Positions 13,402-36,249 of a stretch of DNA of 64,000 nt are shown here, in pieces; within the stretch, counting starts at the first letter, position 1, and the number at the start of each line of letters is the position of its first letter. Source of the stretch: Euglena gracilis (taxonomy: Eukaryota). Under the pieces are notes generated by a model. The model was not told the origin of the DNA, did no database searches, and saw only the letters and a list, made by a program, of their open reading frames with translations. The position numbers and the translations under genes were made by a program. Location: positions 26,672,954-26,736,953 of the forward strand of contig CP154954.1 of the NCBI GenBank assembly GCA_039621445.1, written 5' to 3'.

Positions 13402-15112
13402 AGGGGGGGGGGCCACTCTGGCCCCCACTTTGTCTTTGCCATTGGCAGATTTGACATTTACAGGTTCTTCTGTAGCAATTCTTGTACTCCCCTGCCAGCA
13501 TAAATCCTTCCCTTTCAGCAACCTTCAGCGCCCAGGGGCCACAGACATTTGTAGGATCTTTCCCCAGGTACTTAACACACTGCCTCAAATTTTCCTTTTC
13601 AATCTGCTCCTCCTTGCGCCTTGATTCCTCAATCAGCCAATTCATTGCACCTAAACTTCCCAAAACCACAGCAAGAAACAAACCAGAAGTCAAAGCCCCA
13701 AAGGGTTCATACTGCTTGCCACCTGCACAAAGTTACAGACGACAGATTGTGGAATGTACAAATTAGGAATCTCTGGCCTGGCTCTGCTTAATTCTGCTGC
13801 CATCTGGGAGCGAATCCCACACTCCCCTCCTCAAAAAGCTTCCCAAGCTATATCAGCCCTTGGCATCTGGGAGTCGCTCACAGATGGGTTTCACCTGTTC
13901 CACCTGACTTTTCACCGCCCTCGAGCCACACAAGTCTTTTTTCGAGCAATTTCCGACCCCACCATGCCACACCCGTGCATGCCGTGGCCAATTGCCTGCG
14001 GTTTGTGCACAGGGGGCAATTGGTTCCCTGGAGCAATGGCTACCTGAGCAATCGTCGAAGGCGTGCCACCAGGGCCTGCCACACAGGGGGGGGCTTTGAG
14101 GCAAAAGTTACCTGGGCAATCATCCCGGAAGATGTGCCACCAGGACTTGCCACACAAGCCGGCATGCCACTGAAAATTCGACCCGGAGCTTTCGACAGGG
14201 GGCGAAAAGAACAAGGCAATCAGGTTAACACCCGGTCCGCTCAGTCCTCGAGCCGCTTGGCAGACTTAAGCTTCAGCCTTCTCCTTCTCCGCTTCCAACT
14301 GGTCGTCTCATTCTCCACTCTCGCCTTGGATTCGTCTGCACTTGGCTCAGCCACACCCTTCTTCGGGACTTCCCAGCTGAACGGTTCTTCCTCGTCGGTG
14401 GACTCGCATGTGACCTTTGACAGCTCCTTCTGGCTTGCTTCTTGCACTGCATCACCAGCATGTACACCTGTGGTATGCACAGCCTCAGCATCTTCTTCAT
14501 CACCCCTTCTGGCATGCAATTGGTCCCCATGACACATCTGTACATCACCACATCCACCTTCATCAACTTCAATGTCACCATTTCAAGGGCTGTAATGCCC
14601 GATGCTGGCATCACACACCTCAGCATTCCTTGACTTGTCATCTTCAGCATGTAGCACTTGAACATCCTTGCAAGGCTCATGAACCCTTTGTGTAGGGGGG
14701 GCCCCACTCTGGCCCCCACTTTGTCTTTGCCATTGGCAGATTTGACATTTACAGGTTTTTCTGTAGCAGTTCTTGTACTCCCCTGCCAGCAAAAATCCTT
14801 CCCCTTCAGCAACCTTCAGCGCCCAGGGGCCACAGACATTTGTAGGATCTTTCCCCAGGTACTTAACACACTGCCTCAAATTTTCCTTTTCAATCTGCTC
14901 CTGCTTGCGCCTTGATTCCTCAATCAGCCAATTCATTGCACCAAACCTTCCCAAAACCACAGCAAGAAACAAACCAGAAGTCAAAGCCCCAAAGGGTTCA
15001 TACTGCTTGCCACCTGCACAAAGTTACAGATGACAGATTGTGGAATGTACAAATTAGGAATCTCTGGCCTGGCTCTGCTTAATTCTGCTGCCATCTGGGA
15101 GCGAATCCCACA
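13402..15112 (-). mobile_element. Non-autonomous LTR element A (~420-bp LTRs) nested in the Gypsy 5' LTR
   Basis: Direct repeats ~13402-13821 (outer end deleted into G-run) and 14691-15112 TG..CA; PPT GAGGAGGGGAG on minus; right TSD AGGG matches the empty site in the 3' LTR (~27651). Confidence 0.88.
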
Positions 15113-15372
15113 AGGGAGGGGTTGAAACCCCAAAGGCACCCCCCTTGGAAATCCCAGTGACACACCCCTCAGGGGTCGGGGAGGGTCCACTGGGAAGTTT
15201 CTCCTTGTAAATGATGGCCCAGTTTCGGCCACAGGGGGGTGCAGAATGGGAAAAAAAATCACAAGTCGGATCGAGGAGCCAAAAAAAGATCCTACGCCGG
15301 AAACTGGCCGGGGCCGGGGTTTCCGCTTCACCCCAGTGCTGCCGTGGGACATGGCAGCACGGGTGTGAATCA

Positions 15373-15382
15373 TGGTAAGCAG
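15373..15382 (+). promoter_or_regulatory. Primer binding site (tRNA-iMet-like TGGTAAGCAG)
   Basis: Immediately follows LTR CA end; same motif at 29804. Confidence 0.7.
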
Positions 15383-16299
15383 TGGTTTTTCTTTCAGCCT
15401 TCAGTTCCAAGTTTTGGGTTGGAAATCCCTGCTCAGAATGTTTTCTTTGATGATCAGCCATTGGCCCAATCTCAGATGGCAAATCTGACGATTGAAGTTT
15501 CGGGGCACAGGGAGTTTGGACCCGAAACCAGTTTGGCTGACCTCAGAACCCCCACAAATATGGGACAGATGTTGGAATTTCAGGGTGGGGATGGCCAGGT
15601 TGTCATTTCTAACCAACAGTGTTTTCCAGAGCCTTTTTCAGGATTTTTGCCTTTGTAAAATATGGGGTACGGTTTTTTGCTGCCTGAGTTGCACCCTCTC
15701 CCAGACTTTTCATTGGCGCAAAATTTGGGGAATCTGCCATCATTACCCGCTTTTGCAATGCCTTTGCCTCCAGCTCAACCAGTTTCTTCAACACCAGCCC
15801 AAGAGCCGGTGGCACTTTTGCAGTTTTCCCAACCATCCCAGGTAGATGGGCTGGCGAAGGAAACGGTAAGTGCCTCGACAGGGCAGGGGGGTGATAACCC
15901 CAGCCCAGTTTTCTTTGAAAAGCCGGCACAGGTCAGTGTGCTGGGCTTAAACAATAATAATAACTGGGACAGCAGCGAACGGGTCAGAGCGGAAGTGGAG
16001 GGGGGCAGAGAAAAACCCGAATGACCAGCCCAGTTCCACTTCTACTCGGCGACCCCGAACACCGGCTTCATCACCAGGCAGTGATGAAGTTCAGCAAAAA
16101 CGGCTGCACCGTGAGGTTGGTCACGGTCAGCCAGCAGCTGCTGCAGCCCCCCAGCCTCCTCATATTTTCATCGAGGGGGGTGAGGAGGAGGTCTAACCCC
16201 CAGCCTATGAAAGTTCTGAAGCCATCCCCAGGGTGGGTTCACAAAATCAGAGATTTGAAGACCCCTGGGGGGCAATTTTTACAAAGTAACAGAGACCTC

Positions 16300-19022
16300 C
16301 AGTGGACTGTGCAGCACCTGACTTTTCGGGTTTGGCTTTGGAAAAAGCTAACAAAGAGTGGGTTCTGCAGCAGCAGCAGCAGCAGCAACAACCCCCCGCA
16401 GTCGACATCCACCTGGTGGAGCACATGACTGCACGAATCGAAGAAACGGCCAGGGCTGACAGACTGCAGATTTTTGAACTTTTTGAAAAAAAATGTGAGG
16501 CCCAGGTGCAAATTTCTGTGAAAAAAATTGACGCACAGGCACTTGAACTTTTCTTCGGGCAGGAGAAATGTTTTGAGGAAAAACTGGTCCACCAGTTTTC
16601 TTCCAGCCGTGATCAGTTTTTGGCCCTGAGGCAGGAATTTTTACGAATTCTGGACAGCCTGCCACAGGAAAATTTGAAACAAGTGCAAAATCAGGTGGCC
16701 GCCTTACCGATTAAGGATCTCGTGCTTGAAAATTTTCAGCGGTTTGCTGAGAATTTTGGAGCCGCCCAGCCAGCTCAGGGGGGGGGGAGAGGCAGAAACT
16801 CTCCAAGAGCTGGCCGTTGTTGCTGCCAAAATCGTTGAAGTTCAGGCTGACCTGGTATCGCTGCGTAGTACGGTACAGGGCCAGGCTCAGCAGCTCCAGC
16901 AGTTCGCTGATTATGTTCGCCAGCTGGGTGAACAAAAATCAGCATGAATACAGCCCTCCATGGTTTTAGTGGGGGTATTCAAAAACTGCACCAGAATATT
17001 TCAGATGAAGTAGGGAAACGACCCTCAGAAATGCAGAAACTGTTGACGGATTGTCAGCAGAATTTTCAGAGTGTTTATCAACAGATTTTTTCCCAGGAGA
17101 AAAAATTTGGTGGGCTGGTGGAGGAATTAAGGCAGGGACTTGAAAAAGTTGGGGGGAACACTTTCGAGTTTGCAGAAAGTGTTGCAGGATTTACAAAAAA
17201 ATGGACCCGTACACCCAACTGCAGAACCGAGAGGGGTTTTGCAAAAAAAATTCTGACATGTGGTGGCTGCGGCAGCGCAGCCAGCAGCCCCTACACCCAG
17301 TGGGGCTGCCACAGCCTGGGCAGCAGCTGGCCCAGCAGCCCGTCGTCCAGCTAGTCCAGCAGCCTGGCCAGCCAGCAGGCCAGCCGCAGCCTGCTCACGG
17401 GCTGCCAATGGGGCTGGGCCAGCCGTCAGCTGGACAGCAGCAGCCCCAGCAGGTGCCCAGTGCTGACCCAGCTTTTTCAGATCAGATTATTTCTCATAAT
17501 AAATCTGCAGTTTCAAACATTTCCCCTCCCTTAGTGATTGAGGGGGGATTTGTTTTGGAGGACACGCAAGGCACGGCAGTGGTTTCTTCTGTGTGTCCCT
17601 CCACATATTTCTGCAGCCCCTGCTTTCTCGATTAGGCCTATCGGGACAGGGGGGGGGCTGCAGCCAACCCAGGTCACGGGTTGGGTTTTCCTTTTATCGG
17701 TGACCCAGTAGCTTTTGAAATTTTGCAGGGAGGTGCTAAGCCTATTTTGATAAATCGGGCAGCATTTCCTGGCAAGATTTTGAAGTAGATTGGAATCTTT
17801 ACTGGGATAGGTTGACATCAGGCAAACCGTACTCTAATTTGCAAAAGCTGCAGGTTTCTGAGGCATGTTTAGGACCCAGATTAGGGGAGGAAATCAGGCT
17901 CTATCGGTTGAATGGAACTAAATTAAGTTACCCAACCATATTGGCCCAGTTCCAGAACCGTTATGCCTCGAATAAGGGGCTTACGGCTCGGAAAATATGG
18001 CACGAGGTAACTATGGTAAACGAAGGCAAAATTACCCGGGCTGATCTGCAAGAATTTTGGATTAAATGTTGCAGTGCCTGGCACCATGTAAAGGTTGCCA
18101 CAGCCGGGGAGGCTCGTAGATTATTTTTGGAAAGAACTCATCCTTTTTTAAGCAAGTTTTGCATAGAAGAGGAGGATAACCGAGCCCGTAAACAACCCAT
18201 TGTCAGGCTCACAGGGATACCAAATCCCACGGTGGATGGGATTCAAAGGAGTGTGAGCCAGATCACTGGGGGGATTGATCCACGGAACGTGGTTATCAAA
18301 AACCCTGGTGCCATTTGCCTTATTTATATCAGTTCCCCGGAGGAGGCACTGAAATTAACAGCCGTAAATGGAAGGAAATTGCAGGGAATGGAAAATTTGC
18401 TCAACGCCGAATTGGTGGAACAACTAATGACCGTTGAGGAAATGTTTGCTTTTGCCGAGGGCAGGTTGGCTCTTCGGGAGAAGCAGGATTTGGCTTTGAA
18501 TCAGCACCATTTTCCCAGATTATTCAGCAAATCGACAACAAAAGGCTCAGGGTAAATACAGGTGTTGGAAAAAGGCCAGACCCCCCCCCCGGTGTCCCCA
18601 ACATCCATGCCAGCACCAGCAGCCGGGGGGCAGGTTCACACCTCAAAATCTGCCCACAGCCAGCTGCGAAGGGCGATAAGGGGCCAGCCCAGCCAGCCCC
18701 GCGTGGCAGGTCCCCTTCTTCGTCTTCGCGGCCAGCAGCAGTTTCATGGTCGTGAACCCAACGTCCAGCACCCCCAGCCCGGCAAGGCAAGGGGGGGCAG
18801 ACCTGGACCCCGCACGCATCAGGTAGGGGCATGTCTCCATATCCATGCTTCAACTGTGGGGAGGGCGGACATTATTTTTTTGAGTGTGACAAACCGCTGA
18901 GTGAGGCCCTTGCTAAATGTAATGATTTTTGGCGAACTAATGGAAAAGGCAAGGGGCAGCCCAACTGTAAAGGGCAGCAAGTCACTCAGCGAAATTGCTC
19001 GGGCAATGGGGGTGCATGGTAA
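16300..19022 (+). pseudogene. gag: Gypsy gag-like region (Q-rich/coiled N-terminus, capsid-like 17812-18555, zinc knuckle)
   Basis: CFNCGEGGHYFFEC (CX2CX4HX4C) at ~18846-18887; multiple frameshifts. Confidence 0.7.
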
Positions 19023-19329
19023 AAGGTGGGTGGGCATACCTCTTCTCCACCTGGGGCCCAATAGGGGGGCCAGGGGCAGTTTGAGAATGGGGGGGGCTGC
19101 CCATGGCCGTGTCTCTCCACCCTGTGAGGGAAACGGTGTAAATATTTCTGCTTCAAAGAAACTGGGGTGTACAGGATTTTATGGCTGATTCAGGGTGTGG
19201 CGAAAAACATTCTTTGGATCAGCCCCCCAGATATTTGAATCGGTCTCGTTACTCCTGGAGGGAAGTAAAATGTTCAAGGGTTCCTGTTTTGTATTCAAAT
19301 CTGCCACAGCCCAACCCCCTACCATCAGC

Positions 19330-19960
19330 TCAGCGACCTCAGGCATTAGATTTATTCGCTGGCACAGGTTCGGTGGTGAGGCGGTTGGCAGAACGGGGGT
19401 ATGAAGTTTTGTCAATCGAAAATGCTCCCTGGACGAACTTCCACCCCCACACAGACATTTTAACCTGGCACTACAGGCGATACCCGGTTGGATTTTTTGA
19501 GGTTATTGCCGCTAGACCCCCCTGTAATATTTATTCCACGGCTAATAACCCCAGACCAAGGGACTTCTCCCAGGCGGATGCCCTGGTGGAGAGAACCATG
19601 GAAAATATAGATTATTTTGAGCCCAAGTTGTGGTGGTTGGAGAACCCCCGCACTGGTCTTTTGCGAAATAGGGAGGTGGTGAAAAACCTGCCCTATATCG
19701 ACATTGATTATTGTCAGTTTTCAGATTTGGGTTATAAAAAGCCACACACGTTTCTGGTGCTGCCCTCCCATTTCACAACTACGGTCGGTGTCGTGTGATG
19801 GCGAATCGTGTCCTAACCTGGTGATGGGGGACAATGGGCAGTTCCGGCACCGTGAATTGTTGGGGGGCAGAAAAAATGAAGTTTTCCCTCCGACAAAAAG
19901 GAAGAATACCCCCCTGGTGATTGATTATCTCCTAAGTTCTGGGTATTTTCTGGGGGGCTA
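19330..19960 (+). pseudogene. C5-cytosine DNA methyltransferase domain inside the Gypsy polyprotein (frameshift ~19745)
   Basis: Motif I ALDLFAGTGS, II VLSIE, III TDIL, IV ARPPC, VI WWLENP, VIII-like DYCQF..GYKKP/TRFW. Confidence 0.9.
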
Positions 19961-20119
19961 GCCCAAAGAGATTTCCCAAAATTCCCAGGATTTTGAGGAA
20001 GGGGAAATTCCAGACCGTTGCTGTCATTTGGCCAACACCTTGAAGGTCAATCAGATGTGGCCCATTGAAAACGAGCTGCAACTTTTGATACTATCTCAAA
20101 CGTATCTCCCTAATTGAGA

Positions 20120-20480
20120 TACCAAGCAGCTCAAAGTTTTGGTGGACACGGGAGCCCAGGTGAACCTGGTCAAAAGGTTCATCGTTCCAAAACATCTGGC
20201 CAGGTCACCACGAATGCCGATTCGGCTGGTGGCTGCCAACGGCCAATGCGTTTTGGGGGACGACCAGTATATTAAATTGGAGTTGGGTTTTCAACGCAGG
20301 GGTACGGGGCAGGGGGGCACCCGGGCCTTGTACCTCGAAGGGGAAGTCTACCTCGCGAATATTGAGGTAGATGCTATACTATCATTTCCAAGGTTAGCCG
20401 AACATGGTTTGGGTGTGTTCCCACACCATAACGCTTTGGTTTATGACAATCCTGATCTGACTTTCTTGTACGGGTGGGAT
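20120..20480 (+). pseudogene. Retropepsin aspartic protease
   Basis: LVDTGAQVNLV catalytic motif, IRLVAANG, DAIL. Confidence 0.9.
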
Positions 20481-20879
20481 ACCAGAAATCAGAAAAGGAA
20501 ATCCCATAAGGGGAAGAAAAAACACAATTCGCAAAAAAGAGTTGGGTTGTGGTTTCTGACTTCGGAGAATCCCCTGAAAACGCACCAACCACGGAGTCCC
20601 TTGAAAATGAAAAGGTGTGGTTGCACCTGCAAAAAATGAATTTGCACCTACCCTTGCAAGGCTTTGATATGCAACCAAAATTTCCTGGCAAGAAGGAATT
20701 GCATACCATAGCCAAGCATCTCACCGAATCGCCAGCCGAGGACAAGGCAGTGAATGCCATAATCCAGGCTCGCGACTCGGATGAGAAGGAGGACCCCAGG
20801 GTGGTAGCATTTCGGAATAAAATTCTTCAGGATTTTGAAGGGGAGGTGTTGGGTATGGAGGTACCCCCTGACCCTCCTG

Positions 20880-22260
20880 TTCGGGGACCTTATGGTTACG
20901 CCCAGATTCCTCTGAAGGAGGGTGCTGTACCCACAACGCAAAAAACCTTTGTGTTACACGATGAAAGATTTGAAGCTCACAACAAGGTCACCCAGGAAAG
21001 GTGGCACCGGAAATTTGTTGAGCGATTGCCCAAGGGAACAAATTCGGAATGGCTGTCCGTAACATTTGTAGTTCCGAAAAAAGGAGGCGAATGGAGGGGA
21101 GTGGTAGACATGCGGGGGCCTAACAGTCAAACTAGGCATGTGTCCTACCCATTTCCCGTAATTGAAGACCTCCTGGTAAAACAAGGTGGAAACATGATGT
21201 TTTCCATCTTGGATTTACGGCAGGCTTTCCACCAACAGCCTTTGGACCCGGAAAGCCGGCCCATCACATGTTGTAGTACCCCCCTCGGTCTTTTTCAGTG
21301 GAGGGTTAATGTGATGGGTCTAACAAACGCAAGCCAGCAGTTTTAGCAAATGATGGAAGATCGCCTCTTCCCCGTGGGAGACGTGGCTGATCCTTACATC
21401 GACGACATTTTGACTGGAACCCGAGTGCGTCCTGGTGAGGATTTACTCGCAGCACATGACATGGATTTGCGAAGAGTCCTTGAAGTTTTACGAAAAGACA
21501 GATTTGTAGCCGACAAAAGAAAATGCCGCACGATCTGGGTGGGGGGGTGAGAAAACCATCCCCTGGAAAGCTTATGGCCATTGAAAAATGGGAGCCACCC
21601 CAAACAATCACGGGTTTACGTGCTTTTCTGGGGTTCACAAATTATTACAGCTCCTATGTGAAGGATTACGCCCACATTGTCGCTTGCCTTCAAGGTAAGC
21701 TCAACGTTTCACGAGTGGACGGCAAGAAGGGTTCCAAGAAAAGGATTTCTTGGGACCATCCGACATTGAGGCATTCCAAAAAATTAAATCACTGTTGTGC
21801 AGTGAATTAATTTTGCAACACGTTAAGCCAGACAAACCATTTGTTTTAAGAGTGGATGCCAGCCAGTATGCGGTTGGTGCCACCCTTGAACAATTAGTCG
21901 GGGAGGATAGGGCTCCTACTCCTGAAGACGCACGGGCCAAGCGTACTGTGCCTGTCGCCTTCATGAGTAGGAAGCTAACGGGCAGCCAAAGAAACTGGGT
22001 ACCTAGGAAACAGGAGACTTATGCCATAATCCTAGCCTTACAAAAGTGGGAATCATGGATTGGGCTGCAGCCCATCCTGGTTCTCACGGACCACAATTCT
22101 AGATGCACCAAGTGGTCCCATTGGGAGAAGGGCTAGGTGGCATCAAATATTATCAAATTTCGATTTGTCGGTTGGGTATATCCCGGGACGGGAAAATACC
22201 ATAGCCGATTTGTTGTCAAGGTGGGCTTACCTGGCCTCCCATGCCTTGAAGGACAATTTC
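20880..22260 (+). pseudogene. pol: Gypsy reverse transcriptase + RNase H (stop and frameshifts)
   Basis: WRGVVDMRGPNSQT, FSILDLRQAFHQ, YIDD, LRAFLGFTNYY, LRVDASQYAVGATL, ETYAI, N.IADLLSR. Confidence 0.95.
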
Positions 22261-22433
22261 AAGGCATGGGTTAGCCCTTGACACCAAGGAAATGAGGGAA
22301 ATCATTCAAACAGAAAAATTGGAAGAGGCAGAATCTATGTGGCTACGGTTAGTGGCCAACCAACCACAGCCAATACATACATTCGTGGAGTCACCACACG
22401 GGGAGGTGCTACCAGGGGGTCCGGGGACACGGG

Positions 22434-24116
22434 TGTTTTCTGAGTGTCTCCTTTTACCCACTGGGGGGTCAAACTTGAAAACGTTTCCTTTCCAGCAGCA
22501 CTCACTTTCCTTCAGCACAGCATAAACCAAGACTTGAAATCGTCATCTGGCGCTCAGGCCTTCCAGGAGTCAAAGAGTTCAGGACAGTTGCAGCTGCAAA
22601 AACAGAAATTTTGTAATTAGGATTCTCGCCTCCTAATTTAATTTTGGGTTTTGAAATTTTAAACCTGGCGCCGCCCACACACCCCTCTCTGGACACTTCG
22701 TGCCCACTGCCTTCGGCAATTTTTTTGCGGCGCCAAAATTGGCCTTTTTTCTTTTGGGGGGGAGGCGGCTGAAATTTGTTGTTTTTTTAATTTTTGAACG
22801 CTGAATCAGGGATATAATACATCCGTTGCAGGGATTTAGTCCAACAATGTCCAGCAGCAAAATAGGGGGGGCACAGGGCCACCAGCCAACCCCAGAGCCC
22901 TTGGGGCACCATGGGAAAGTTTGGTCCCCCTCCCAACCTTCCCCAGGACACTCCTGGGATGAGGGGGCCAGTGGGGGGTTTCCAGGGGGAGTCCCAGGGC
23001 CTGTGGGTAGGCCCCCTTGTGGCGGTCCTCCCACCTGGGCCCTGGGCCTGGGCCTGGCCAGCACAAACTCAAAGCCAATCTTGCAGGGAGGGGGCTCAAA
23101 TTGAACACACAATCATTGCAAAGAAGCTTCACCACTTGAATCACTGAAATTTGGGCTGTCCCCTGTGCCGACCTGGAGCCTAAGGTGCACTTGTTGGCAG
23201 GACCCTCCTTTCATCTTTTGCCTCCTCATTCTCCTTTTTGCTGAACTTGAAATTTGATTAGAAACTTTTGCCATTTTGAAACATTGCCTTATCCTTCTGC
23301 AGACAAATGCCACTTGTACTGGCCATTTTGTGGGGGGGACTGTGAACCCTGCCCCAACCAACTCAAACAACGGTGTGGCACAAGGATACTCCAGCATTCT
23401 GACAACAATGTCTGGAAGATCTTCCCACCAGGGGACAGTCACCCACCTTGGGACAACCAGCACCGCATGACCATGATCCTTCTTCAGCTTGTGGATGACA
23501 TTTGCAATGAGGTTGAAGGGGGGATTTGCCCACAACAATCCAACAATGGAATGTGTCCACTTCACTGTGAAGGAGTCTTCCACAAATTGTGACCCAGGTC
23601 CCCACCAGCATTTGAATCTCTTGCTGTCTTCCAAACTGAATGCATCAATGTTGGGGGTCTTCAAACCCAATCTCTCAAAGATTTCAACAACATACTGAAA
23701 TTTCACTGCATACAGCTCAGATTTCCAGCCAAGTTTTCTGCAGCATTTATCTTCCCAAATTTCTTCATCATTGACAATCCCTGACTTGACACTTTCTGAA
23801 ATGTCCATTTCTTCTGGCCAAACTGGCTGACTTTTGTCCTCCAAGACTTGCGCAACAAATGAACTCTTTGTGTTTTCTGAGTGTCTCCTTTTACCAACTG
23901 GGGGGTCAAACTTGAAACTTTTTCCTTTCCAGCAGCACTCACTTTCCTTCAGCACAGCATAAACCAAGACTTGAAATCGTCATCGTGCGCTCAGGCCTTA
24001 CAGCAGTCAAAGAGTTCTGAACAGTTGCAGCTGCAAAAACAGAAATTTTGTAATTAGGATAGGCGCATCCTAATTCAATTTTGGGTTTTGAAATTTTAAA
24101 CCTGGCACCGCCCACA
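22434..24116 (-). mobile_element. Non-autonomous LTR element B (246-bp LTRs) carrying an N6-adenine MTase
   Basis: LTRs 22434-22679 and 23871-24116, TG..CA, 4-bp TSD CGGG, PPT AGAGAGGGG on minus; sits between Gypsy RH and IN. Confidence 0.92.
23113..23808 (-). CDS. Dam-like N6-adenine DNA methyltransferase (DIRS-MT-like), open ORF
   Basis: PNIDAFS (motif I-like), LLWANPPF (motif IV), AVLVVPRW..PWW; no stops; first ATG ~23808. Confidence 0.8.
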   Translation of the reverse strand: MDISESVKSGIVNDEEIWEDKCCRKLGWKSELYAVKFQYVVEIFERLGLKTPNIDAFSLEDSKRFKCWWGPGSQFVEDSFTVKWTHSIVGLLWANPPFNLIANVIHKLKKDHGHAVLVVPRWVTVPWWEDLPDIVVRMLEYPCATPLFELVGAGFTVPPTKWPVQVAFVCRRIRQCFKMAKVSNQISSSAKRRMRRQKMKGGSCQQVHLRLQVGTGDSPNFSDSSGEASLQ

Positions 24117-24559
24117 CGGGTTGACGGTGCACACAACCGGGGGATAGGAATTCAGAACCACTTGGAGGAACAAAACCCCAGGTTGGGTTCAACCTCCACC
24201 CCCAAGGGAGAAAAATGAAAACATGTTTCATTCTCAACTCGGGTTGACGAGTTTGGGAATGAGACAAGTCTTGTGGACGAGGTCCAAGAGCCAAGGGGGG
24301 AGCATTTTCCATTGACACGCTTTTCTATACCAGCTTCGCCAACAATTCCAACCCCTGAACCTGCTGCCGCGGCTACCACTGAGGTACCTGGGGCAGACCG
24401 AGAATCACCTGTGTTGTCTTCAGGTGGTTTGAGTGGTGAGGGGGGGGGGAGCCACATCTACAGCCGATTCCTCACCCATCTCCCCCGGATCTGTGTGGGA
24501 TTTATCGTGGAAGGAGGAATATTTAAAAAGTTCCCTCCTTGGTCACCAATTTTTCAGGT

Positions 24560-25976
24560 TACCCAGGATTCAAAGGTGCCGTGGCCTGAAAATGTAAAGG
24601 TTTTTGGGGACAAAAGGTTTTTCGAGGAGAGGCTTTGTGTGCCCAAATCTCTCCAAGAAAACCTCATTCGGGATCACCACTCATACCAAGGGCATGTGGG
24701 ATTCCCAAGGTTATGGGAATGCATGTCCCTTAGGTATGATTAGGCTGATCACTCACTCGCTCGAGAATTTGCTAAAGGAGTCATGGGCCTTTCTGGGACT
24801 TGCCAAGCGTGCCGACGGCCGGAGAGTCTTAAGGGTATAGTGGAATCTACACCCATACCCCCAGCCGTAATGTATTCGGTGGCCCTGACATGTTTAGCAT
24901 GCCTCTCGTGGAGTGGGAAGGAAATTCTTACGACTCCAGGCTTGGGTGTGTGGATCGTCTCTCCGGTTGGATAGTGGCGATCCCCCACCTAGCAATAGGA
25001 TTTACCCAAGCCAAGGCAGCCAACCAAATGCTGTTGCATGCTTGGAGACCCTTTGGCGTCCCTTCCATTATTACTTCCGATCTGGGCCCACATTTTGTCG
25101 CCGGTTGGTGGCAGTGTGTGGCAGTTGGTGGCAATGTGTGCCTTGATGGGAATTAGGAAAGCCTACTCCCAGGCCTACGATCACCAGGCGAATGGAAGGG
25201 CGGAGAGGGCTGGCCAACAAATAATGGAACGGCTTGAGAAAATTCAGGTTGAGGACAAGTTGAATTGGGTTGAAGCCCTCCCCCAAGCACTAGACCGTAT
25301 CCAGGATACGCCGGGGGGGAGAGGCCTAAGCCCATTTCAAATCTTGTTCGGTCGACACCGTTCATTGTGTGGTTTACCTTATGAACCGTTAAGGGATTGT
25401 GAAGATGCCTGATCATTTTTTTCTCGGCAAAGATAAATTGATTTGGTAGTGGCTGGCAAAATGAATAATTTGCATGCCAAGCAATGTGCTCGGGCCAACT
25501 GTGGGAGTTGGGAGCCATTGGAGGTGGGGAATCTGGTGTTGTACCTCAGACCCCCCGATGGTGGCACAAAACTGGATTCCCGTTGGTTGGGCCCTTGCAA
25601 GGTTACCGCAAGGGAGGGAATTCATTCCTACCTAATTGAGGTCAAACCGGGCCATATTATGAAGGCCCATCGGAAGGCTTTGAAGGTATATGTGGAGGAC
25701 CCCACATCCGATAAGCCTATCCCCCTATTTTTCCATCGGCGGACGGTACCTGAGGCGGAAGGTGCCCCAGATACCTGGTTAGTGGATAAAATCCTAAACC
25801 ACAAGTTCGTTAATGGAAAAATGTTTTTCTTAACGAAGTGGCAAGGTCTTGAGGAGGCGAATTGGGAACCGGTGGAACATTTTTCCCAGGAGTATTATAG
25901 TGATGTAATAGATTATTGTCTGGCAAAAGGGTTGCCGTTGGATGTCTCTAAGGATTTAACGGCAACGGCAACCTGA
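24560..25976 (+). pseudogene. pol: Gypsy integrase with C-terminal chromodomain
   Basis: HH..GH/CQAC zinc motif, VDRLSG, IITSDLGPHF, QANGRAER, SPFQILFG, WLGP, chromodomain VDKILNHK..FFLTKWQG..NWEP. Confidence 0.92.
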
Positions 25977-27916
25977 AAAAAGGGGGAAAGGAGAGGTGAA
26001 AAAGAGCCTGGAGTGGTTGCCTGGGGAGAGGGAGGTTCCATTCTATGCCCCTTCACAGATGCAGGTGGACCCCATCACAGGGCTGAGGCATTGTGAAAAA
26101 TGACGGGAGTTTCCTCGTCATTGGTTTCATTTTTTTATTTCTCCCCTGAAGTTTTCATTCGCCACCACACCCTGGTTTGGGTGAGGCTGGTGTCGGCAAT
26201 CGAGGACATTTCATTGCCCCTGTTGATTTGTTGCCATTTTTCATTGAACTCCCGTGAAATGATTTCAAAAGAGAATGAAGGATTCTCGTGGCTGGGGGGA
26301 AACCAGCCGAGAATATTATTTTTTATACGGGTGGGTGTTTTCCAATCGAGGGATCCCACCCCGGAACGGGAAGGGATGTTGCTAACAACATCAAAAGCAA
26401 AACGTTGAATGAGTGCATGATTGCCACCCGTTTTGTTTACGTTGTTGTGGGTGGATTCCGGTTTGGAAGTTTCACCAAAAATTCTTAACGAGGACAAACC
26501 AACGGAAGCACAACCGAGGGTTTGTTCTTTTGACAGCCTCCTCCAAGTATGGCTTTGAGATTGCCCTGTCGGTTTGGCTGGGCAAAGCCACATTGCTAAA
26601 TTTCCAAATGGGGGAAGGAACCACCCCCCACAACGGTGTGCATGGTTTGCCACCACACTAAGGGGAGGCAAACCGGCACCCAAGGAAGACGCCGAAGCCC
26701 AACACCCCGAACTTCGACGAGGCGTTTGGCTCTGGCAACCATCACTATCCGTTTCATCCACCTACGCAGGTCGGATTGTCAATTCGAAGTCTGGGACTCT
26801 GAGTTGGTCGAGTTGGAGGTTGATGCAAGATATTTGAAACGGTTGTTTTCTGGTATTGGCGTACGAGGAGCATGTGGAGAGAACGACTGGAGATGGTAAT
26901 TTCATCGGCCTACCCATGCGACTCGCTATCCTGACTGATTCAAAAGGTCGTGACTCCTCCCCTTGCGACGACAGTCGGGGGTTTCACCCCCCCCCCTCCT
27001 TTTCGCTTTCCTTGGGATGGGAATGAAAAAAATATTGAAATAGTGCGTGTTAAGAGAAAAAAATGGATTGGGTGAGAGCGCTTGCAAGCGCTTGGAACAG
27101 ATTTTCCTGAGATTGGCGCCTGAGTTCCTGGAGTTTTTGCAAGGGTTTGCAAGACTCAAAAATGATGGAATTCAGCATAATTTATCAAAATCAAGGGGGG
27201 AAAACTTGATTTTGACCTGGGTTGGTTCATTTTGATGCAATGGGCAAGAATTTGGGGTTTCAGAGCGCTTAGGAATCAGCGCACTCAATCTTAAATTTAA
27301 CTGCCCATCAAGGGCATCAAAATCATATTTTCTCTCACAGGATTTACCTTTATTTTCCTTTTGGCCATTGTCAATTGTTGCAATTACAAACAATTATTAT
27401 TGTGAATTCAAGCTTTGAAATTGCAATTGCAAATGGAAAGTCCAATTGAGAACAATCAATCAAGTCAACAAGAGGGTGAGGTTTGTTCCCCCAATCCCCC
27501 TCCATCTGTGGAAAACGGGGCAGGGGGGTGGGGCTCCCAAACTCAGGCAACCACAGACCAAATTTCACCCCAAAACCCCCTTTTTGGCCTAGAAACGGTG
27601 AGAAATGACACCCAGGGGGGGGGGGGTTGCTCTAACTGGTTCAACTGAGCAGGGAGGGGTTGCAACCCCAAAGGCACCCCCCTTGGAAATACCAGTGACA
27701 CCCCACTCAGGGGTCGGGGAGGGTCCACTGGGAAGTTTATCCTTGGAAATGATGGCCCAGTTTCGGCCACGGGGCGATGCAGAATGGGAATAAAAATTCC
27801 GACACAAGTCGGCTCGAGGAGCCAAAAAACGATCCTACGCCGGAAACTGGCCCGGGGCCGGGGTTTCCGCTTCACTCCAGTGCTGCCGTGGAACATGGCA
27901 GCACGGGTGTGAAACA

Positions 27917-28989
27917 AGGGCCACTGGGCAGCAAAAATAGACCTCAAGGATGCCTATTCTCATTTTCCAGTTCGTCCAGGCCTAAGGCCATTTTTGAGAC
28001 ATCAGGTGGGAGGGGGGCAGACCTGGGAATTTCAAACAGGCTGCTTTAATGCGTCAAATTTTCATGTCAGTCATGAAAGCTTTCGAAAAGCTCTGGAGAA
28101 AAAGGGGCATCCAGGTGTTTATTTACCTGGACGACATTTTGCTGGTGTCCCCCACCCAAAACACTTTGCAAAATTACCTGAAAACAGTTTCAAATATTTG
28201 CTGGTTTCTGGGTTCAAAATCAATGTGAAAAAGTCCACCCTCCAGCCTGCCCAAGTAGTAACCCATCTGGGTTTTCAACTGAGCTTCCAGGAAGGAAAGT
28301 TACAGGTGCCCTATCAGAAAGTCAAAACCATCAAAAAGAAACTGGGAAGAACTGTGAAAAAAGGTTGCCTGTGAAAAAGGCAGTTGGCTGCCATTTTTTG
28401 GTCAAATAAGATGCAATCTAATGGCCCTGCTCTTTTTAAGGGCTTTTACGGACACCCTGGAAAAATTTTTGGTGGCAAAGTCCACAGCCTCCTGGGACTC
28501 AAAACACCCCATTTCTCCGGAAATAAAGGCCCAATTAAGGGAAATAAAAATTCTGGAGGACACCTGGGGGGCAGACCCTTCCCCCAAAATGCAACCAGGA
28601 GTTGCACTCAGACAGCAGCACCCATTCCTGGGGGGAGGGGGGGGCTGGACATCCACACAGGAGAACTAGTGCAGGAATTTTGGTGAAAAGACTCCATTTT
28701 AAAAAAAATGTAAAGGAGCTCACTGCAGCAATCAGCACTGTGAAAGGTTTGAGCAAACCTGCGGACACAGTTTCTTTGTCCATAGACAACCAAGGGATTT
28801 ACTATTACCTGACAAAAGGGAGGGGGGCAGAAAGCACTCCTTCAACACAATGCTAAGAACTCAATGCGGAAAGTACTCTTCAACGCAATGTTAAGACCAT
28901 TTTCAAATGGCGCATAGAGCACCAAGTAAACCTTCAAGTCAACTGGGTGCCTTCAAAAGAGTGACTGGCAGACCGCATAAGCAGACGGG
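27917..28989 (+). pseudogene. DIRS-A RT (C-terminal part) and RNase H, frameshifted
   Basis: HWAAKIDLKDAY, YLDD (tacctggacgac ~28124), HSDSS, KELTAA, SIDNQ motifs across frames. Confidence 0.85.
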
Positions 28990-31900
28990 TGTATTGAGAC
29001 CATTGGGTCTCAATGAGTGGAAACTTCAAAATCCCTGTGACTGAAACTTTTCACTGAAATCCTTGGATTACCCTGTCGGGAAACCACTGCCAGTGTGAGC
29101 CAAGGGGGTCCCAATGCCCAATCCCCCTCTTCTGCTCATCTGCCCCAGCAGCTGTAGAAGAGCTGTCCCCTGAGCCCTGTTGGACACACAGCCCCCCCCC
29201 CACTAAATGCAAAGACAAGTGTCGGCTGTCGGCCCGTCGACAGCCGGTTTCTCAACATTCCCCCCGCGATAGGACTCACCCAGTGGGTAGGAAGCTCCAG
29301 AAGTCAATTGGAAGGTGAGCAAAATGTTGCAAGTCTGGAAATACAAAAGAAAAGAATGAAGGAGCAAGGCATTCCATTCCAAAATCATTGTTTGTATGTT
29401 CCTCTCACCCACTGCAAGCACAGGTGTGTCTGACCAAGGTGTGCAGGTTGCCTTGTGTGTGCTTTGCCTTCTGAATCAAGTCCATGCTTCAAAAGGGTCT
29501 TATTTGTGGTTTTCTTTGAATTCAAGGGCAGAAAAAGCCATTTTCAGTTACAAAGTTTTGGATTCTATGCCGGTATGCCAACCCAGCCACTGGCAGGGGG
29601 CGAAAAGCCGGGCCTCCGGCCCTGAGCCCTCCGGAGGCTCTTTTTATTGAAAAACCCTGGGGCTGGGTGGTGACCGTAGGTGGGGGAAAAGGAAGAAGGA
29701 GGCCCAGTCAGTCGGGCACTCCATTACCCAGGCATTTCAATTCATTCCGGTACACCTTTACACTTTCGTCGTCCTTCTTTTTTCTTAAAACCCCCCACCG
29801 ACATGGTAAGCAGAGGTTTGCTGCTGGGCTGTGCCCAGCAGAATCTTTTTGAAATCTGTGGTTTTTTTGGAATCTGTGCACCATAAATCTGCTGGAATCT
29901 GTGAACCAACCAGTTTGTGCTGTAAATCGTAGTGGGTGAATCATCTCGCGTTGGCAAATGGAATGGAATCAAACTGTGAGCAAGGCTCTGGGGGGAAGGG
30001 ACACTGAAAACGGCCCAGATTTTTGCAATTCGCAGTAATAGGAGAATGGGCCAGTGTGAGTGTCAGCTGTGAGCCAAGCTCTAGCTCCAGGTTGTCGGGT
30101 GTGATTTTTTTCTGTGGCTTGTGGTTTTGTCAGTGTTATTTTCAGCAGTTTTTTCCCAATCAGGCTGTGCTTTTTGAACGAACTGTCGAGTCCAATCTGG
30201 AAGATATTTTTTCTGGCAGAAGTTTTCATTTTCAGGTGTTCAGCCCATTTTCATTGGTCGTTTTACAGTTTTGGCTGTGGGAAGTCAAGTTTACGTTTTC
30301 TTCAGCAGTGATTCAAGTTTTTCATCGTTGTCTGGTTGTGGATTTTTTGGATAAACCTCAGAATGCTTGAAGCATGTCATTTTTGAGAAACACCGTTTTC
30401 TCTGGGGTGCACAGTACCCTTTTACTTGTGCTCAAGCAGCCAGACAAACATTTCCAAAAGTTTTTTGTTTTGTGAGTCCCAGTTTGGCTTTGATCGGGGT
30501 GAGTTCACTGCAGAATTGGCAGGTGCTCAATCCACAGACTAGGACATCATTTCAGTGGGTTTGTATGCTGGTCCCATGCATTTGTGGGCTCCGAGTCCAT
30601 CTTTTGGGAGAGGTTTACGGTTTACGGGTTTGTTCAGTGACTTTTTTCCTGTCTGGGACATGCATCGACCTGTTCCATTTTCACAGTTTTGTTGTTCCAC
30701 AGTTTCGGTGTGCTTCCAGTGAGGCAGCCCAGTTCGGTTTTGGGTTATGCCGTTTCGAGGGGAAAAACACCTCTATCGAACACTGGCAGGCAGAGTAATT
30801 TTCATTCATTTTTGGGATTGACTGGTCAAAGAGGGGAACCGGGTGTGTAAATCCGGGAGGAACAGACACCCCCGTCGACACACACTTAAGGGCCCAGGGA
30901 TCCTGAGTTCAGTGGTGTTCAGTTTTCAGTTCAGTGTTCAGTGGTTCAGTTTCAGTTCAGTGGTTTTGTTTTTGGTTGCAACCTGGGGAATTTTTAGTGA
31001 CCAATCCAAGTTTTCAGTTGATGAGTGACGAGGGGGGGAACATACACAAGGGGTGCTGCGGCCGCACCATCTCTTGTATAAACCCCCAAGAAACGAAATC
31101 AGCTGGGACATATGGGTGGTTGCATTTTCTGAGAGCCCCATTCCGGAAAATCTCAGAGTCATCATTGGGCAGCTGAGGGTGTTGTTCAGCTGCATAATCG
31201 CCAGAATTTTGTTTCATGAAATTTGGTTGTATTGTCAAGCCTGTTGGGAAACAAAGTCCACCAGAATATTTCTGGAAAAAATCCCAAAGTGGTGGCAAAG
31301 CTCATTTTTTCCTTGTCCTGTGTGATCTGTTGGCCAATTGGTGAGCCATAATCTCAATCTCATCTGGGTTGGTTTGCTTGGTTGTGGTCGGCTGCACATT
31401 TTTCCAACAGCAGCACTGTTTTTTTGATTTTTCCAACAGCTGCGTTTTGTGTTGCAGCCTGCTGCTGGGGATGCAAATTTTGTCGTAATGGGGTTCCTCC
31501 CTTCCCCAATTGCCATGAGTTGTTCGGCAATATGATAGACAATGATGCATCCTGGTTTTTTTGTTGTGGTTTGGCCACACCGACAAATCAATCTGTGTGG
31601 GTGTTGTGAGAAGGCAGCCATAGGGTCCAGCTTCAGTGGATGTTTGTTGCTGTGTTTGGTTTTTTTGTTTCTTTTTTCCCCTCGTGCAGGTTTTCAACTC
31701 AACAACGCAAGGAGCAAGAATTGAGAGAATTTCGAGGATTTCACCGTGGAGAATTTATCAAGAATTTTGCAATTTGGACTACCACAAGCAGAATTTCGGC
31801 GCCACGGTGGGGTACTTGGAAGTGGTATGGTTAACCAGCTGGGAAGCTAATGCTGAGCCTTGGTGTGTTGGAGCCTGGCTGATAATTGGTTGTGATGCAG

Positions 31901-34900
31901 GGGGTCAACACGGAGTTTGTTTTCCCCCTGTTTGTTGTTTAAGTGAGCCAGTGAGCCAGGCCTGGCAGTCTGAACTCACCGATCGTTCTGCCCAAACATT
32001 CAGGTGGCTGCCAAAATGGGTGCAAGAATCAGCTTATTTTTCCTCCAGTGAAGAAGAGGAATACAAATGTAAATGGGTTCTCCCATCATGTGGGGGGGGG
32101 TCCATTTGGCTGAGTGCACCGAAGTAATTGTTATGACAACTGGGTTACTTTCTTTGGAGAGCCGAGCCTGAGGACCGAGCATTCAAATTTTCCTGGTTTT
32201 TTTTTTGGAATCTGGCAGATTTTGGCCTGGGCCACGATTTTCCCAGTTTTTAACCCCTGCCACCCCGTGTGCTTGGGGGGGGGGGGGGGGGCTCAGCGAA
32301 GCCTGATCCTGTGACTCATTCGGCTTTGGTGGAGCTGAACTTTGTTTTTGCAATCAGTTTGGGAATGTGAAGCCCAGGTTGAATTAATTGAGGTTTTGCC
32401 CTCCAGCCCTTTTGCGGGGGGGGGGGGGCAGTGAGAAGCCCCATCCTTTATGGTGGAGTTGAGTGGTGGTGTTTGATTTCGTTCGGTTAGGACAAGAGGC
32501 CCAGGTTTGTGATTTTTTTTTGGTTTGGAGGCTGAAGCCAGGTTATGCGGCTTGGCCAGGTTATGCCCCTTGCCTCTTGTTGGGGGGGGGGGGGCAGCAA
32601 AAAATCGCCTTGGCTGCGAGACTTGGATTTGAATTTTTGGGATTTTTGAGTTTGCCAAGTTGTTTGACCCCCATTGCCCCGTGTGAATGGGGGGGGGCAG
32701 TGAGAAATTTTCTGGCTGAGAAAGCGGAATTGTATTTTTTAAGATTTTTGAATTTGCTGGGAATCCCCGACCCTCACGGCTGTGTTGCCAGGGGGGGGGG
32801 GGGCAGATCGGTTGGTTATCACGGATATTGTGATTCGGTTTGGCAGGCTGTGCAGTCCACAGTTGTGGGATATTGTGTGGCTGACTTTGGGTTTGGAGAT
32901 TGGAATTCCTGGTTGGATTTGTTGAGGGCTTTTGCAAGCCCTGCTTTTGTGGAGGATCTGTGTTGGAAAAAACCTGGTATTTTTATTTTTTCCAAGGAGA
33001 AAACCGAGTTCAGATTTGCAGACTCAGTTTTTTGATTCGGTTTGGACTTTGAGAACTGCAATTTTCATGGAATATTCGAACTCGGGGGGGGGGGGGTGGA
33101 CCCTCCTCAGGCCCTGGTGTGGGCCAACAAAAAACAGCCACGTGGGCACTCAAGCCCTGTGATATAGTGGCTGAGGGCCAATGTGAAGCCCTGTTCTGCG
33201 TCCAACAAAAAAAAATCGACCCAAGTCATTTTCGGTTGGAATGCATGACAAGGAAGAGGGCGTGCATACACACAAAACATGCAACCGCGCACGCACACGA
33301 ACCCGCACACCCATCTGTACACTATTCCCCCATATAACCGCCTTACCTCGTACCTTTGCGCCTCACCGTTTTTCCTTTTCCTCACCCTTCTTTGCCTTTT
33401 CCTTGTCCCGAATTGGAAAGGAATTCCTCGCTCCTGTTCTTTTTTCCCCCACCCATACAAAGAATTAGGCCGGGCACTGTGAGCCAAGTCCCTGATTCAA
33501 AAGAATTTCATTTCTTCACAAAAAAAAATCAACGAATGTTCAGTTGTTATTGTTTGGATTCTTTCCTTCCTCACCAGGGGCAATATTCTTGAACGCTGCC
33601 AAAGGGACGTTTTAATTAAGGCAGTGTGAGGGACAGGCCTGGGGGGAAGTGTGCCCGAAGATTTTTTTGTTTTCGATTCTTTTATGGGTTCCATGTTCCT
33701 TTTGCATACACAAGTTCGGACTCAACAAAGTACAAGAATTCCCTCACATTTTTGTGGGACGTTTCTTTCTCCCTTCCACCACCGGTGGGGGGGGGGCCAT
33801 TATCACCTGATTTTTCAGGTGCCCCTAAAAGCACTATCAAGTTGCTGGGGGGGGGGCTCACCACAGCCCTTCAAAAAAAAAAACAATGCCCCCAAAGGCC
33901 AAAAACGGCAAAACTTCAAAAAAGAATTTTCCCCCTTTCGGGGGGGGGGGGGGCAAAAATTGGTCCGACTGACGTCGCAAGGGAGGGGGTGTCGGCTGTC
34001 GGCCCGTCGACAGCCGGTTTCTCAACATTCCCCCCGCGATAGGACTCACCCAGTGGGTAGGAAGCTCCAGAAGTCAATTGGAAGGTGAGCAAAATGTTGC
34101 AAGTCTGGAAATACAAAAGAAAAGAATGAAGGAGCAAGGCATTCCATTCCAAAATCATTGTTTGTATGTTCCTCTCACCCACTGCAAGCACAGGTGTGTC
34201 TGACCAAGGTGTGCAGGTTGCCTTGTGTGTGCTTTGCCTTCTGAATCAAGTCCATGCTTCAAAAGGGTCTTATTTGTGGTTTTCTTTGAATTCAAGGGCA
34301 GAAAAAGCCATTTTCAGTTACAAAGTTTTGGATCCTATGCCGGTATGCCAACCCAGCCACTGGCAGGGGGCGAAAAGCCGGGCCTCCGGCCCTGAGCCCT
34401 CCGGAGGCTCTTTTTATTGAAAAACCCTGGGGCTGGGTGGTGACCGTAGGTGGGGGAAAAGGAAGAAGGAGGCCCAGTCAGTCGGGCACTCCATTACCCA
34501 GGCATTTCAATTCATTCCGGTACACCTTTACACTTTCGTCGTCCTTCTTTTTTCTTAAAACCCCCCACCGACACAAGGCTAAAATTATAGCCGGGCCGCG
34601 CCTGATTTTTATCGCTCGAACCACTGGGGTTCGGACTGGGATGGCAGTGTGGGCGGCCCGGTGCCCTGCAGACAAGCAAATCCAAATTACAAGATCAGAG
34701 CTGAAATTAGGAGTGGAGCCTCCTAATTCAAGGGGGAAACCGCACAATTTCACACAGGCCGCAACCAGCCTGAACACAATGACTCAGAAAGCCACAAGCA
34801 TTTGGATTGGTGCTGTGTATCAAATACTATGAGCATTGGGCTTCCTTGTCAAGGTTACCTACCCCCCTCGACAAGGTAGCCCTGAGGTGGGCCCTATCCC

Positions 34901-35779
34901 CTGCAGGGATATAAACTCGGAACTTAGGGCTCACAATCTTGTTAAATGTCTTCTCTTTTTTTTCTTGGACAAGACGGCTCACCAATGCAGCAAACACAGA
35001 ATTCTCCAAGAGGAAAACTTCAACAGCTATGTGAAAATTTCACCTTGAGCTGCACCAAATTCCTGTCTTGGAAAGTCGGCTTGCCAAAAGTAACACAAGC
35101 ACAGAATGTTCAAGAACAAGAACCACAGCACAGCGTACATGACCAGTAACTTCACATCTTGTGGTGAATTGGGGTGGCTGGCAGCCAGGTGGACCTCGAC
35201 CTGGCGCAAAGGTAGGCCTCTTGTTAGGCTGCTGCAGCCACTGCAAACAAAATTCTGAACCACAATTCAAACCAGATTGATGATGACAGCAGTAAATCCT
35301 CCTTCATATCCTCAACACTTGAGCATGGGCAACACACATTCTTCCCACAGATTGTCTCCAGATTGAAACTTTTTCACAGATCTAATCCCAGAATGTCCAC
35401 TTGAAGTTCAATGCTTCAAATCCCATCTGCCATATCACCTTCCAAGTGTCTTTCTTCACAGCCAACCATCTGACAAATGGCCTCCAAGCCACAACAGCAA
35501 ATGAACACAATGTGTATTGAGACCATTGGGTCTAAATGAGTGGAAACTTCAAAATCCCTGTGACGGAAACTTTTCACTGAAATCCTTGAAATTTTCACAG
35601 TATTTGATACACAGCATCAATCCAAATGCTTGTGGATTTCTGAGTCATTGTGTTCAGGCTGGTTGCGGCCTGTGTGAAATTGTGTGGTTTCCCCCTTGAA
35701 TATGGAGGCTCCACTCCTAATTTCAGCTCTGATATTGTAATTTGGATTTGCTTGTCTGCAGGGCACCGGGCCGCCCACA
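28990..35779 (-). mobile_element. LTR element C (267-bp LTR), internally inverted and interrupted by element D
   Basis: Complete LTR 35513-35779; other LTR split into 28990-29067 and inverted 34648-34832; TSD CGGG both sides; removal restores the DIRS RH-MT junction. Confidence 0.85.
29220..34573 (+). mobile_element. Young non-autonomous LTR element D (LARD-like, 584-bp LTRs)
   Basis: LTRs 29220-29803 and 33990-34573, nearly identical, TGTCGG..CCGACA, TSD CAAG, PBS TGGTAAGCAGAGG, PPT AAGGGAGGGGG; no RT/IN motifs seen inside. Confidence 0.92.
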
Positions 35780-35783
35780 CGGG

Positions 35784-36210
35784 AAATAGACAACGGGGAT
35801 TACTCCTTAGACCCCCAACTTTGTCAATGGTTAAGACTGCAATTCCAAAGGTTCATAAATTTGGAAACAGATTTACTTGCCTCCCCAGGCAACAAAAAAA
35901 TACCCAATTTCGTGGCCAGATGGCCCCACTGCGATGCCACAGCCGTACATGCATTACAATGTCCGGCATCTTTATGCAACCTCCCCCCCTGGTCAAAAAT
36001 TCAAAATTTTCTCCCGAGGTTGAGAATGTTTCCCCAGACCAAAGTTTTGATGGTCACCACCTACTGGGATTCAGCCACATGTTGGCCCCAATTAAAAAAA
36101 ATGAAAGTTCCAGGGACCGCCAGCCTGAAAATCACCCCCCTAAGAGGGTATGTTCACCAATTGCAGGGGGGAACAAATGCCACCCCTAGGTGGCCCCTTC
36201 TTTGCATGAT
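35784..36210 (+). pseudogene. DIRS-A N6-adenine methyltransferase (Dam-like) domain, frameshifted
   Basis: DLLASPGNKK, degenerate YANPPW, positioned between RH and YR as in DIRS. Confidence 0.7.
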
Positions 36211-36249
36211 TTGCTCAGGAAAATATTGGAGGGGAAACAAATTCAGGTT

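Follow-up and report, generated by a model that had tools for sequence, protein, structure and literature searches.

In the long terminal repeat (LTR) retrotransposon Tf1, bases 1–11 anneal to the primer binding site, and cleavage by RNase H falls between bases 11 and 12 (PMC7175516). According to the excerpts of the literature on which we drew, such self-priming has also been proposed for Tj1 of S. japonicus and, 'from fungi to vertebrates', for the Tf1/sushi group (PMC4600332); it has been reported or predicted for Tcn1 of Cryptococcus (PMC7175516), and predicted for the moss and club-moss Tcn1 clade, for the plant copia lineage TAR (Houba, Osr-1) and for 12% of the plant elements in one survey (PMC6317226). 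The mechanism is experimental for Tf1 and otherwise inferred from sequence, and the co-variation evidence that bears on it usually needs a genome-wide survey. Here we describe a 64,000-nucleotide (nt) stretch of contig CP154954.1 (forward-strand positions 26,672,954–26,736,953; hereafter the window, in whose own numbering all coordinates are given), in which three related families of small LTR elements, termed A, B and C, form a compact natural co-variation series. We consider Tf1-like self-priming to be the best explanation for these three elements, and a likely one.

A, B and C are all minus-strand elements with LTRs that begin with TGTGGG and end with ACA. An original prediction, made from the letters of the window, had held that the bases next to each 5' LTR are complementary to a motif inside the same LTR. 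Of the eight motif coordinates and sequences on which it rested, seven were exact, and the eighth, the copy in the B 5' LTR (24008–24018), carried the single mismatch claimed for it. We searched the 40 nt downstream of each 5' LTR for the longest reverse-complement match to the LTR, the match in B being to the 3' LTR copy of the motif. Results showed that the site adjoining the 5' LTR was the exact reverse complement of the element's own motif over 12 nt in A, 11 nt in B and 11 nt in C, and that the pairing started at offset 0 from the LTR end in all three elements. The motif was found at LTR positions 112 (A), 99 (B) and 124 (C), which agrees with the predicted distance of roughly 100–125 nt. 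No TGG-type site, as would be expected for transfer RNA (tRNA), was present in any of them; the sites begin with CAAAG or CATTG.

To gauge chance, mononucleotide shuffles of each LTR were scored with offsets of 0–3 allowed. The observed match length was reached by 0 of 5000 shuffles for A, 1 of 5000 for B and 4 of 5000 for C. As controls we used the other LTR elements of the window, D, E and F, all of which have TGG-type sites; none had an anchored complement of at least 6 nt, and their best unanchored matches were only 8, 6 and 7 nt, respectively. We concluded that the complementarity is real, specific to A, B and C relative to the controls in the window, and far beyond chance.

When the 5' parts of the A, B and C LTRs were aligned, they proved to share the TGTGGG start, an inverted repeat in U3 (AATTAGGA...TCCTAATT; complete copies occur in B and in an inverted fragment of C) and a block GCAA(C/G)-N-(T)GAAC that runs into the motif. 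The three elements had been taken for distinct families, a view that the alignment does not sustain: one LTR architecture is common to A, B and C, and they are related. B and C align through the LTR, U5 and about 60 nt past the site, with a mean column identity of 73%. The motif opens with TGAAC in each of the three elements and continues with CCTTTG in A, TCTTTG in B and ACAATG in C. As predicted, the motif varies between families while the pairing is kept, the site tracking the motif each time.

The consensus fold of B and C contained a 10-pair closing stem, in which three pairs were changed on both sides and none was broken. Between A and B one primer position differs (C for T) and is matched in the site; this is a fourth compensated position, and with four in total no pair was broken in intact copies. 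Minimum free energy and centroid folds paired the motif with the site in all three elements, and the C fold reached z = −2.61 (3 of 200 shuffles folded as well). Adjacency, shuffles, controls, compensation and folds all bore out the predicted signature of priming by RNA from the element's own LTR; what did not stand was the distinctness of the families and the target duplication of A (see below). A 14-mer (GGCAAGCAGTATGA) is common to the LTRs of A (13707–13720 and 14998–15011, minus strand) and F (55679–55692 and 56368–56381, plus strand), giving four occurrences against 0.01 expected, and overlaps the first 4 nt of the putative A primer. Together with the invariant TGAAC, it hints that the motif may begin at a promoter or start-site box of host LTR elements.

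The original prediction had described the elements as non-autonomous, and this was borne out: A and B (about 1.7 kb each) and C (about 1.4 kb if the nested element E is set aside) encode no reverse transcriptase (RT) or integrase, nor did we find gag, RNase H or a chromodomain in them. We propose that their RNA would start at or upstream of the 11–12 nt motif, some 100–125 nt into the 5' LTR; the motif position of 99–124 nt would be compatible with a U3/R border. The motif would then fold back over R-U5, a primer-to-site loop of 133–299 nt, and pair with the 11–12 nt directly after the LTR. RNase H would cut after the last paired base (G), leaving a 3' OH that would be extended into U5. RT, RNase H and integrase would presumably be supplied in trans by an autonomous element, and the integrase that moved A, B and C would be one that makes 4-bp target duplications. 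As is established for retroviruses, plus-strand strong-stop synthesis copies the primer as well. Applied to A, B and C, such recopying would rewrite the site from the LTR motif in each cycle, and motif and site would therefore co-vary while the families diverge. U5 ends at the 3' end of the minus-strand primer; thus, any primer of A, B and C must pair with exactly these bases, and the 3' end of a tRNA is excluded as primer because the sites lack TGG.

Several observations weigh against Tf1-like self-priming in these elements. The transcript start at the motif is a predicted one, and the sequences compared with the window were all contigs. One of them (X15 record 9, from a run guessed to be RNA) covers the A 5' LTR from end to end and a further 60 nt upstream of it; were it RNA, it would represent read-through and would not have started at the motif. 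We found no autonomous partner with a site of this type in the window, where D, the sole LTR element encoding RT and integrase, has a TGG-type site. The tRNA check covered the window, in which ARAGORN called no tRNA gene. The first base of the motif is mismatched in the B 5' LTR, which can be explained by decay after insertion, the two B LTRs being 93.5% identical to each other. One full junction of 5' LTR and site was readable per family. Lastly, overall fold stability was no better than that of shuffles in B (z = +0.67) and A (z = −0.80).

A more far-reaching reading would treat A, B and C as a pol-less self-priming superfamily in a protist that is neither fungus, plant nor vertebrate and may be a euglenozoan, trans-mobilised by tRNA-primed chromoviruses like D, with B reduced to a vehicle for a DAM gene. 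We hold this to be doubtful; if it were true, a self-primer would need no dedicated Tf1-type enzyme, or self-priming would have arisen independently outside Tf1/sushi and TAR. Turning to other roles for the pairing, motif and site could form a long-range stem for packaging, dimerisation or translation control, with priming achieved by other means. Such a stem would have counterparts, judging from the titles of cited work, in the functional U5 stems of retroviral and Tf1 leaders, and in our folds the pairing closes the whole R-U5 domain. We nevertheless think it unlikely, given that the LTR end coincides with the start of pairing in all three elements, at the very bases with which a primer must pair, and that no alternative TGG site directly follows.

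Priming by a host RNA (a tRNA fragment or other small RNA), with the LTR motif as a coincidental or mimicking copy, seems to us less probable again. Half-tRNA priming exists in copia lineages, according to the part of a plant survey seen here (PMC6317226), and the tRNA check was, as noted, confined to the window. The sites of A, B and C, however, all lack the TGG start, and they differ at the extension end; a host RNA of its own would then be required for each of the three, copied every time at the same relative position of the LTR. D, E and F moreover use TGG-type sites in the same window, and a search of the whole window with Rfam matched no known RNA family. Chance complementarity, or a repeat or assembly artefact, can be dismissed for practical purposes: the window is indeed homopolymer-rich and repeat-dense and the A 3' junction is damaged, but only 0, 1 and 4 of 5000 shuffles did as well, independently in three elements with the same offset and a similar LTR position, changes were compensatory, LTR copies agree, and the B insertion was confirmed in independent runs. 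The features of the elements are collected in Table 1.

Table 1. Coordinates of the LTR elements in the window and of their priming features (sites of A, B and C and the self-primer of A in minus-strand sense)
Feature	Position	Strand	Remarks
Element A, small non-autonomous LTR element, ~1.71 kb	13402–15112	−	in D 5' LTR
A 5' LTR, 422 nt	14691–15112	−	TGTGGG...TACA
A putative self-primer ATGAACCCTTTG	14990–15001	−	LTR position 112
A putative primer binding site CAAAGGGTTCAT	14679–14690	−	starts at first base after LTR
A 3' LTR	13404–13821	−	without terminal TACA; second motif copy 13699–13710
A purine tract GAGGAGGGGAG	13822–13832	−	just upstream of 3' LTR
Element B, 1683 nt	22434–24116	−	CCCG flanks 24117–24120 and 22430–22433
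B 5' LTR, 246 nt	23871–24116	−	motif copy 24008–24018, 10/11, first base changed
B putative primer binding site CAAAGAGTTCA	23860–23870	−	offset 0 from LTR end
B 3' LTR	22434–22679	−	motif TGAACTCTTTG 22571–22581, 11/11, LTR position 99
B sole open reading frame, 231 amino acids, intact	23113–23808	−	retrotransposon-type DAM (N6-adenine methyltransferase-like) domain, letters NPPF
Element C, 6790 nt	28990–35779	−	1432 nt without E and E duplication; CCCG flanks 35780–35783 and 28986–28989
C 5' LTR, 267 nt	35513–35779	−	motif TGAACACAATG 35646–35656, LTR position 124
C putative primer binding site CATTGTGTTCA	35502–35512	−	offset 0
C LTR positions 1–185, inverted, 96% identical	34648–34832	+	5' part of former 3' LTR
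C 3' LTR remnant, positions 192–267	28990–29065	−	
C LTR positions 113–267, unbroken	40441–40595	+	in inverted duplicate of DIRS-like host copy
Element D, high-copy chromovirus	12850–27917 (outer bounds approximate)	+	hosts A and B; TGG-type site TGGTAAGCAGTGG
Element E, 5354 nt, LTRs 584 nt	29220–34573	+	nested in C; duplication CAAG; TGG-type site TGGTAAGCAGAGG
Element F, miniature LTR element, 1022 nt	55408–56429	+	duplication CTGGG; TGG-type site TGGTAGCAGAGG

We compared the window with four sequencing runs (X1, X15, X16 and X20), all consisting of assembled contigs, two small ones of which were only guessed to be RNA. B and C are real insertions, proven by empty sites. For B, contigs of all four runs (two from X1 and one each from X15, X16 and X20) join position 22435 to 24123; the 1687 nt skipped equal 1683 + 4, and B is thus a true insertion with a 4-bp duplication. 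For C, an empty site was located at about 52853–52856 in a 77%-like DIRS-like paralogue, where the sequences flanking C adjoin and overlap by 4 bp. The bounds of B and C were corrected by one base relative to the figures of the repeat finder. The 4-bp target duplications that had been claimed for all three elements are accordingly present in B and C (CCCG on the minus strand, with empty sites) but not in A, whose 3' junction is damaged. The duplicated bases are identical in B and C, which may reflect a target preference of the mobilising integrase or coincidence.

Element A was absent from D-LTR copies in six contigs of run X1. In these A-free contigs, 23–33 nt separate the two sides of the insertion, and the window lacks them, about 24 nt of D-LTR target being missing at the A 3' junction; because the 3' LTR also lacks its last 4 nt, A has no clean target duplication. 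Over 418 nt, the two A LTRs show 97.6% identity. In X15 record 9, a 94%-like copy of A with another 5' flank departs from the window exactly at 15112/15113, which confirms the outer boundary of the LTR. A further contig (X16 record 16) matches A from 14214 to 15048 and then continues with 103 letters unlike the window, the exit falling in U3 at about LTR position 65; we regard it as a variant or chimeric A-family LTR. An open reading frame (ORF) that starts inside the A LTR (MNWLIEESRRK...) occurs on the minus strand at 14583–14936 and 13331–13645, the 5' copy crossing the priming site into the interior. A Methyltransf_31 match in the internal 135-amino-acid ORF of A fell below the Pfam threshold (22.2 versus 27 bits) and was treated as noise.

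The original prediction also held that the elements carry variable cargo. This was found in B, with its DAM-type domain. Pfam assigned no family to the one internal ORF of A that was scanned, and the interior of C outside E contained no ATG-started ORF of at least 100 amino acids. The letters NPPF in the B ORF are what we take to be the adenine-methyltransferase motif. Relatives of the ORF numbered 1150 representatives at E ≤ 1e-3 and 208 at E ≤ 1e-10. Eight of the ten relatives scanned matched the Pfam family Dam (PF05869), with three exceeding the gathering score, and RVT_1 was matched as well by one; the Atlas likewise gave a lead to DAM. For the B ORF itself, a Pfam search returned no match and a PDB sequence search nothing usable. 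By its relatives, the B ORF belongs to the DAM-like family found in DIRS elements and some LTR elements. DIRS-type replication through an internal complementary region was considered on account of this domain, and was ruled out by the direct LTRs, purine tracts, target duplications and empty sites of B and C.

A word-index protein search with the B ORF returned a single near-length match, a 93%-identical, stop-free JGI homologue (P0001, on a 1460-nt contig), and none among longer proteins. This homologue has the same residues, TKSS, across the B primer binding site. A metagenome scan with the B ORF gave 42 pattern matches, none of which was confirmed, and one with a 19-nt U5 pattern gave five loci, none similar to the window by blastn.

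B lies on the opposite strand inside D, which itself has a DNMT-like ORF and a chromodomain, and D copies without B were present in all four runs. A gene caller blind to strand and nesting could take B and D together for one element with DAM, DNMT and chromodomain. Euglena LTR elements with DAM, DNMT and chromodomain have been described in a study whose authors, in the part seen here, raise the caveat of nested insertion (10.64898/2026.05.21.726589). The arrangement of B within D is relevant to recent claims that the two methyltransferases occur together in retrotransposons, as well as to that caveat.

The 3' LTR of C is present in two pieces (Table 1). Because positions 113–267 of the C LTR are unbroken at 40441–40595, the 3' LTR was once continuous across the break between positions 185 and 192, and an inversion of 29066–34832 would have split it. 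The DIRS-like copy that hosts C has an inverted duplication, 97–98% identical, with 27900–28989 and 36125–37000 corresponding to 41643–39546. This duplication arose after the insertion of C, and the second copy has since lost most of C plus 345 nt of flank. The C empty site belongs to a third DIRS-like copy (51808–53886), which is 77–80% alike.

The remaining LTR elements use TGG-type sites. D encodes RT, an integrase C-terminus with a chromodomain, and the DNMT-like ORF (19142–19798), whose matches to DNMT1 were weak (best E = 0.017). The best Atlas cluster for the D integrase C-terminus was labelled Euglenozoa, a label resting on one member. The LTRs of E are identical at 583 of 584 positions, its 4186-nt interior has no ATG-started ORF above 128 amino acids, and its site nearly equals that of D; E looks like a young non-coding passenger of D-like machinery. 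The LTRs of F differ at 12 of 333 positions, and its site resembles what we take to be the complement of the 3' end of initiator tRNA-Met. The F LTRs also hold a tRNA-like stretch with the look of a T-arm (GGTTCGAGACC), in which ARAGORN calls no tRNA.

Taken as a whole, the 22-kb region consists of retroelements nested in one another. A DIRS-like element, old and present in several copies in the window, received both the chromovirus D and element C; B sits within the pol region of D, just as A sits in its 5' LTR. At a G+C content of 50.5%, runs of at least 10 letters in the window number 48 for C or G but 7 for A or T, and several element junctions, the A 3' end among them, coincide with runs of this kind. 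Parts of the stretch were present in 20 of the 24 sequencing runs listed, none of which contained half of its words. Relative depth over A and B was higher in the two small runs guessed to be RNA, and we conclude nothing from depth. A leaf-litter RNA run yielded 36 records with only 85–99%-like pieces, from which we draw neither habitat nor host.

In comparison with described self-priming elements, A, B and C resemble Tf1 and Tf2 of Schizosaccharomyces pombe, and Tj1, in having no tRNA-type site and, after the 5' LTR, an 11-nt site (11–12 nt here) that pairs with RNA derived from the element's own LTR. Those elements are Ty3/gypsy chromoviruses, whereas A, B and C lack gag, RT, RNase H and integrase, make 4-bp duplications, and reside in a host that is no fission yeast. 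As far as the excerpts of the cited work extend, Tf1/sushi, Tcn1 and TAR elements show the same signature (their site matches no tRNA and complements their own LTR), but they are autonomous and have been placed by RT and integrase phylogeny, by which A, B and C are not placeable. Self-priming in A, B and C is thus less exotic than the original prediction implied, the mechanism being already known elsewhere. Our literature search met no pol-less self-priming LTR element in the portions of papers seen, which is weak evidence that the case is unreported; it also met no report of self-priming for protists, and was too loose to show absence.

Among small non-autonomous LTR elements, terminal-repeat retrotransposons in miniature (TRIM) share with A, B and C short LTRs (246–422 nt here), a priming site, a purine tract, a target duplication, the lack of pol, and nesting. 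A, B and C differ from them in total length (1.4–1.7 kb) and in the intact gene carried by B. By these features the three elements are non-autonomous elements of the TRIM type or similar to large retrotransposon derivatives (LARD), with a duplication that is clean in B and C and was lost with a small deletion in A. For bivalve TRIM elements, the authors could propose no priming mechanism in the part of their report seen here (PMC6934838). The dictyostelid chromovirus Skipper is like A, B and C in lacking a TGG signature and in having a protist host; as excerpted, however, its description gives it a polypyrimidine stretch and a left LTR that contains no complement, whereas A, B and C have an exact complement (PMC5006619).

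If self-priming in A, B and C is confirmed, pol-less elements can rely on it, and which RT and RNase H cut the primer becomes the question; the range of the mechanism would also extend to a host that is probably neither fungus, vertebrate nor land plant. By every criterion applied to their sequences A, B and C appear to fit Tf1, while, having no pol genes, they are not assignable to the Tf1/sushi clade.

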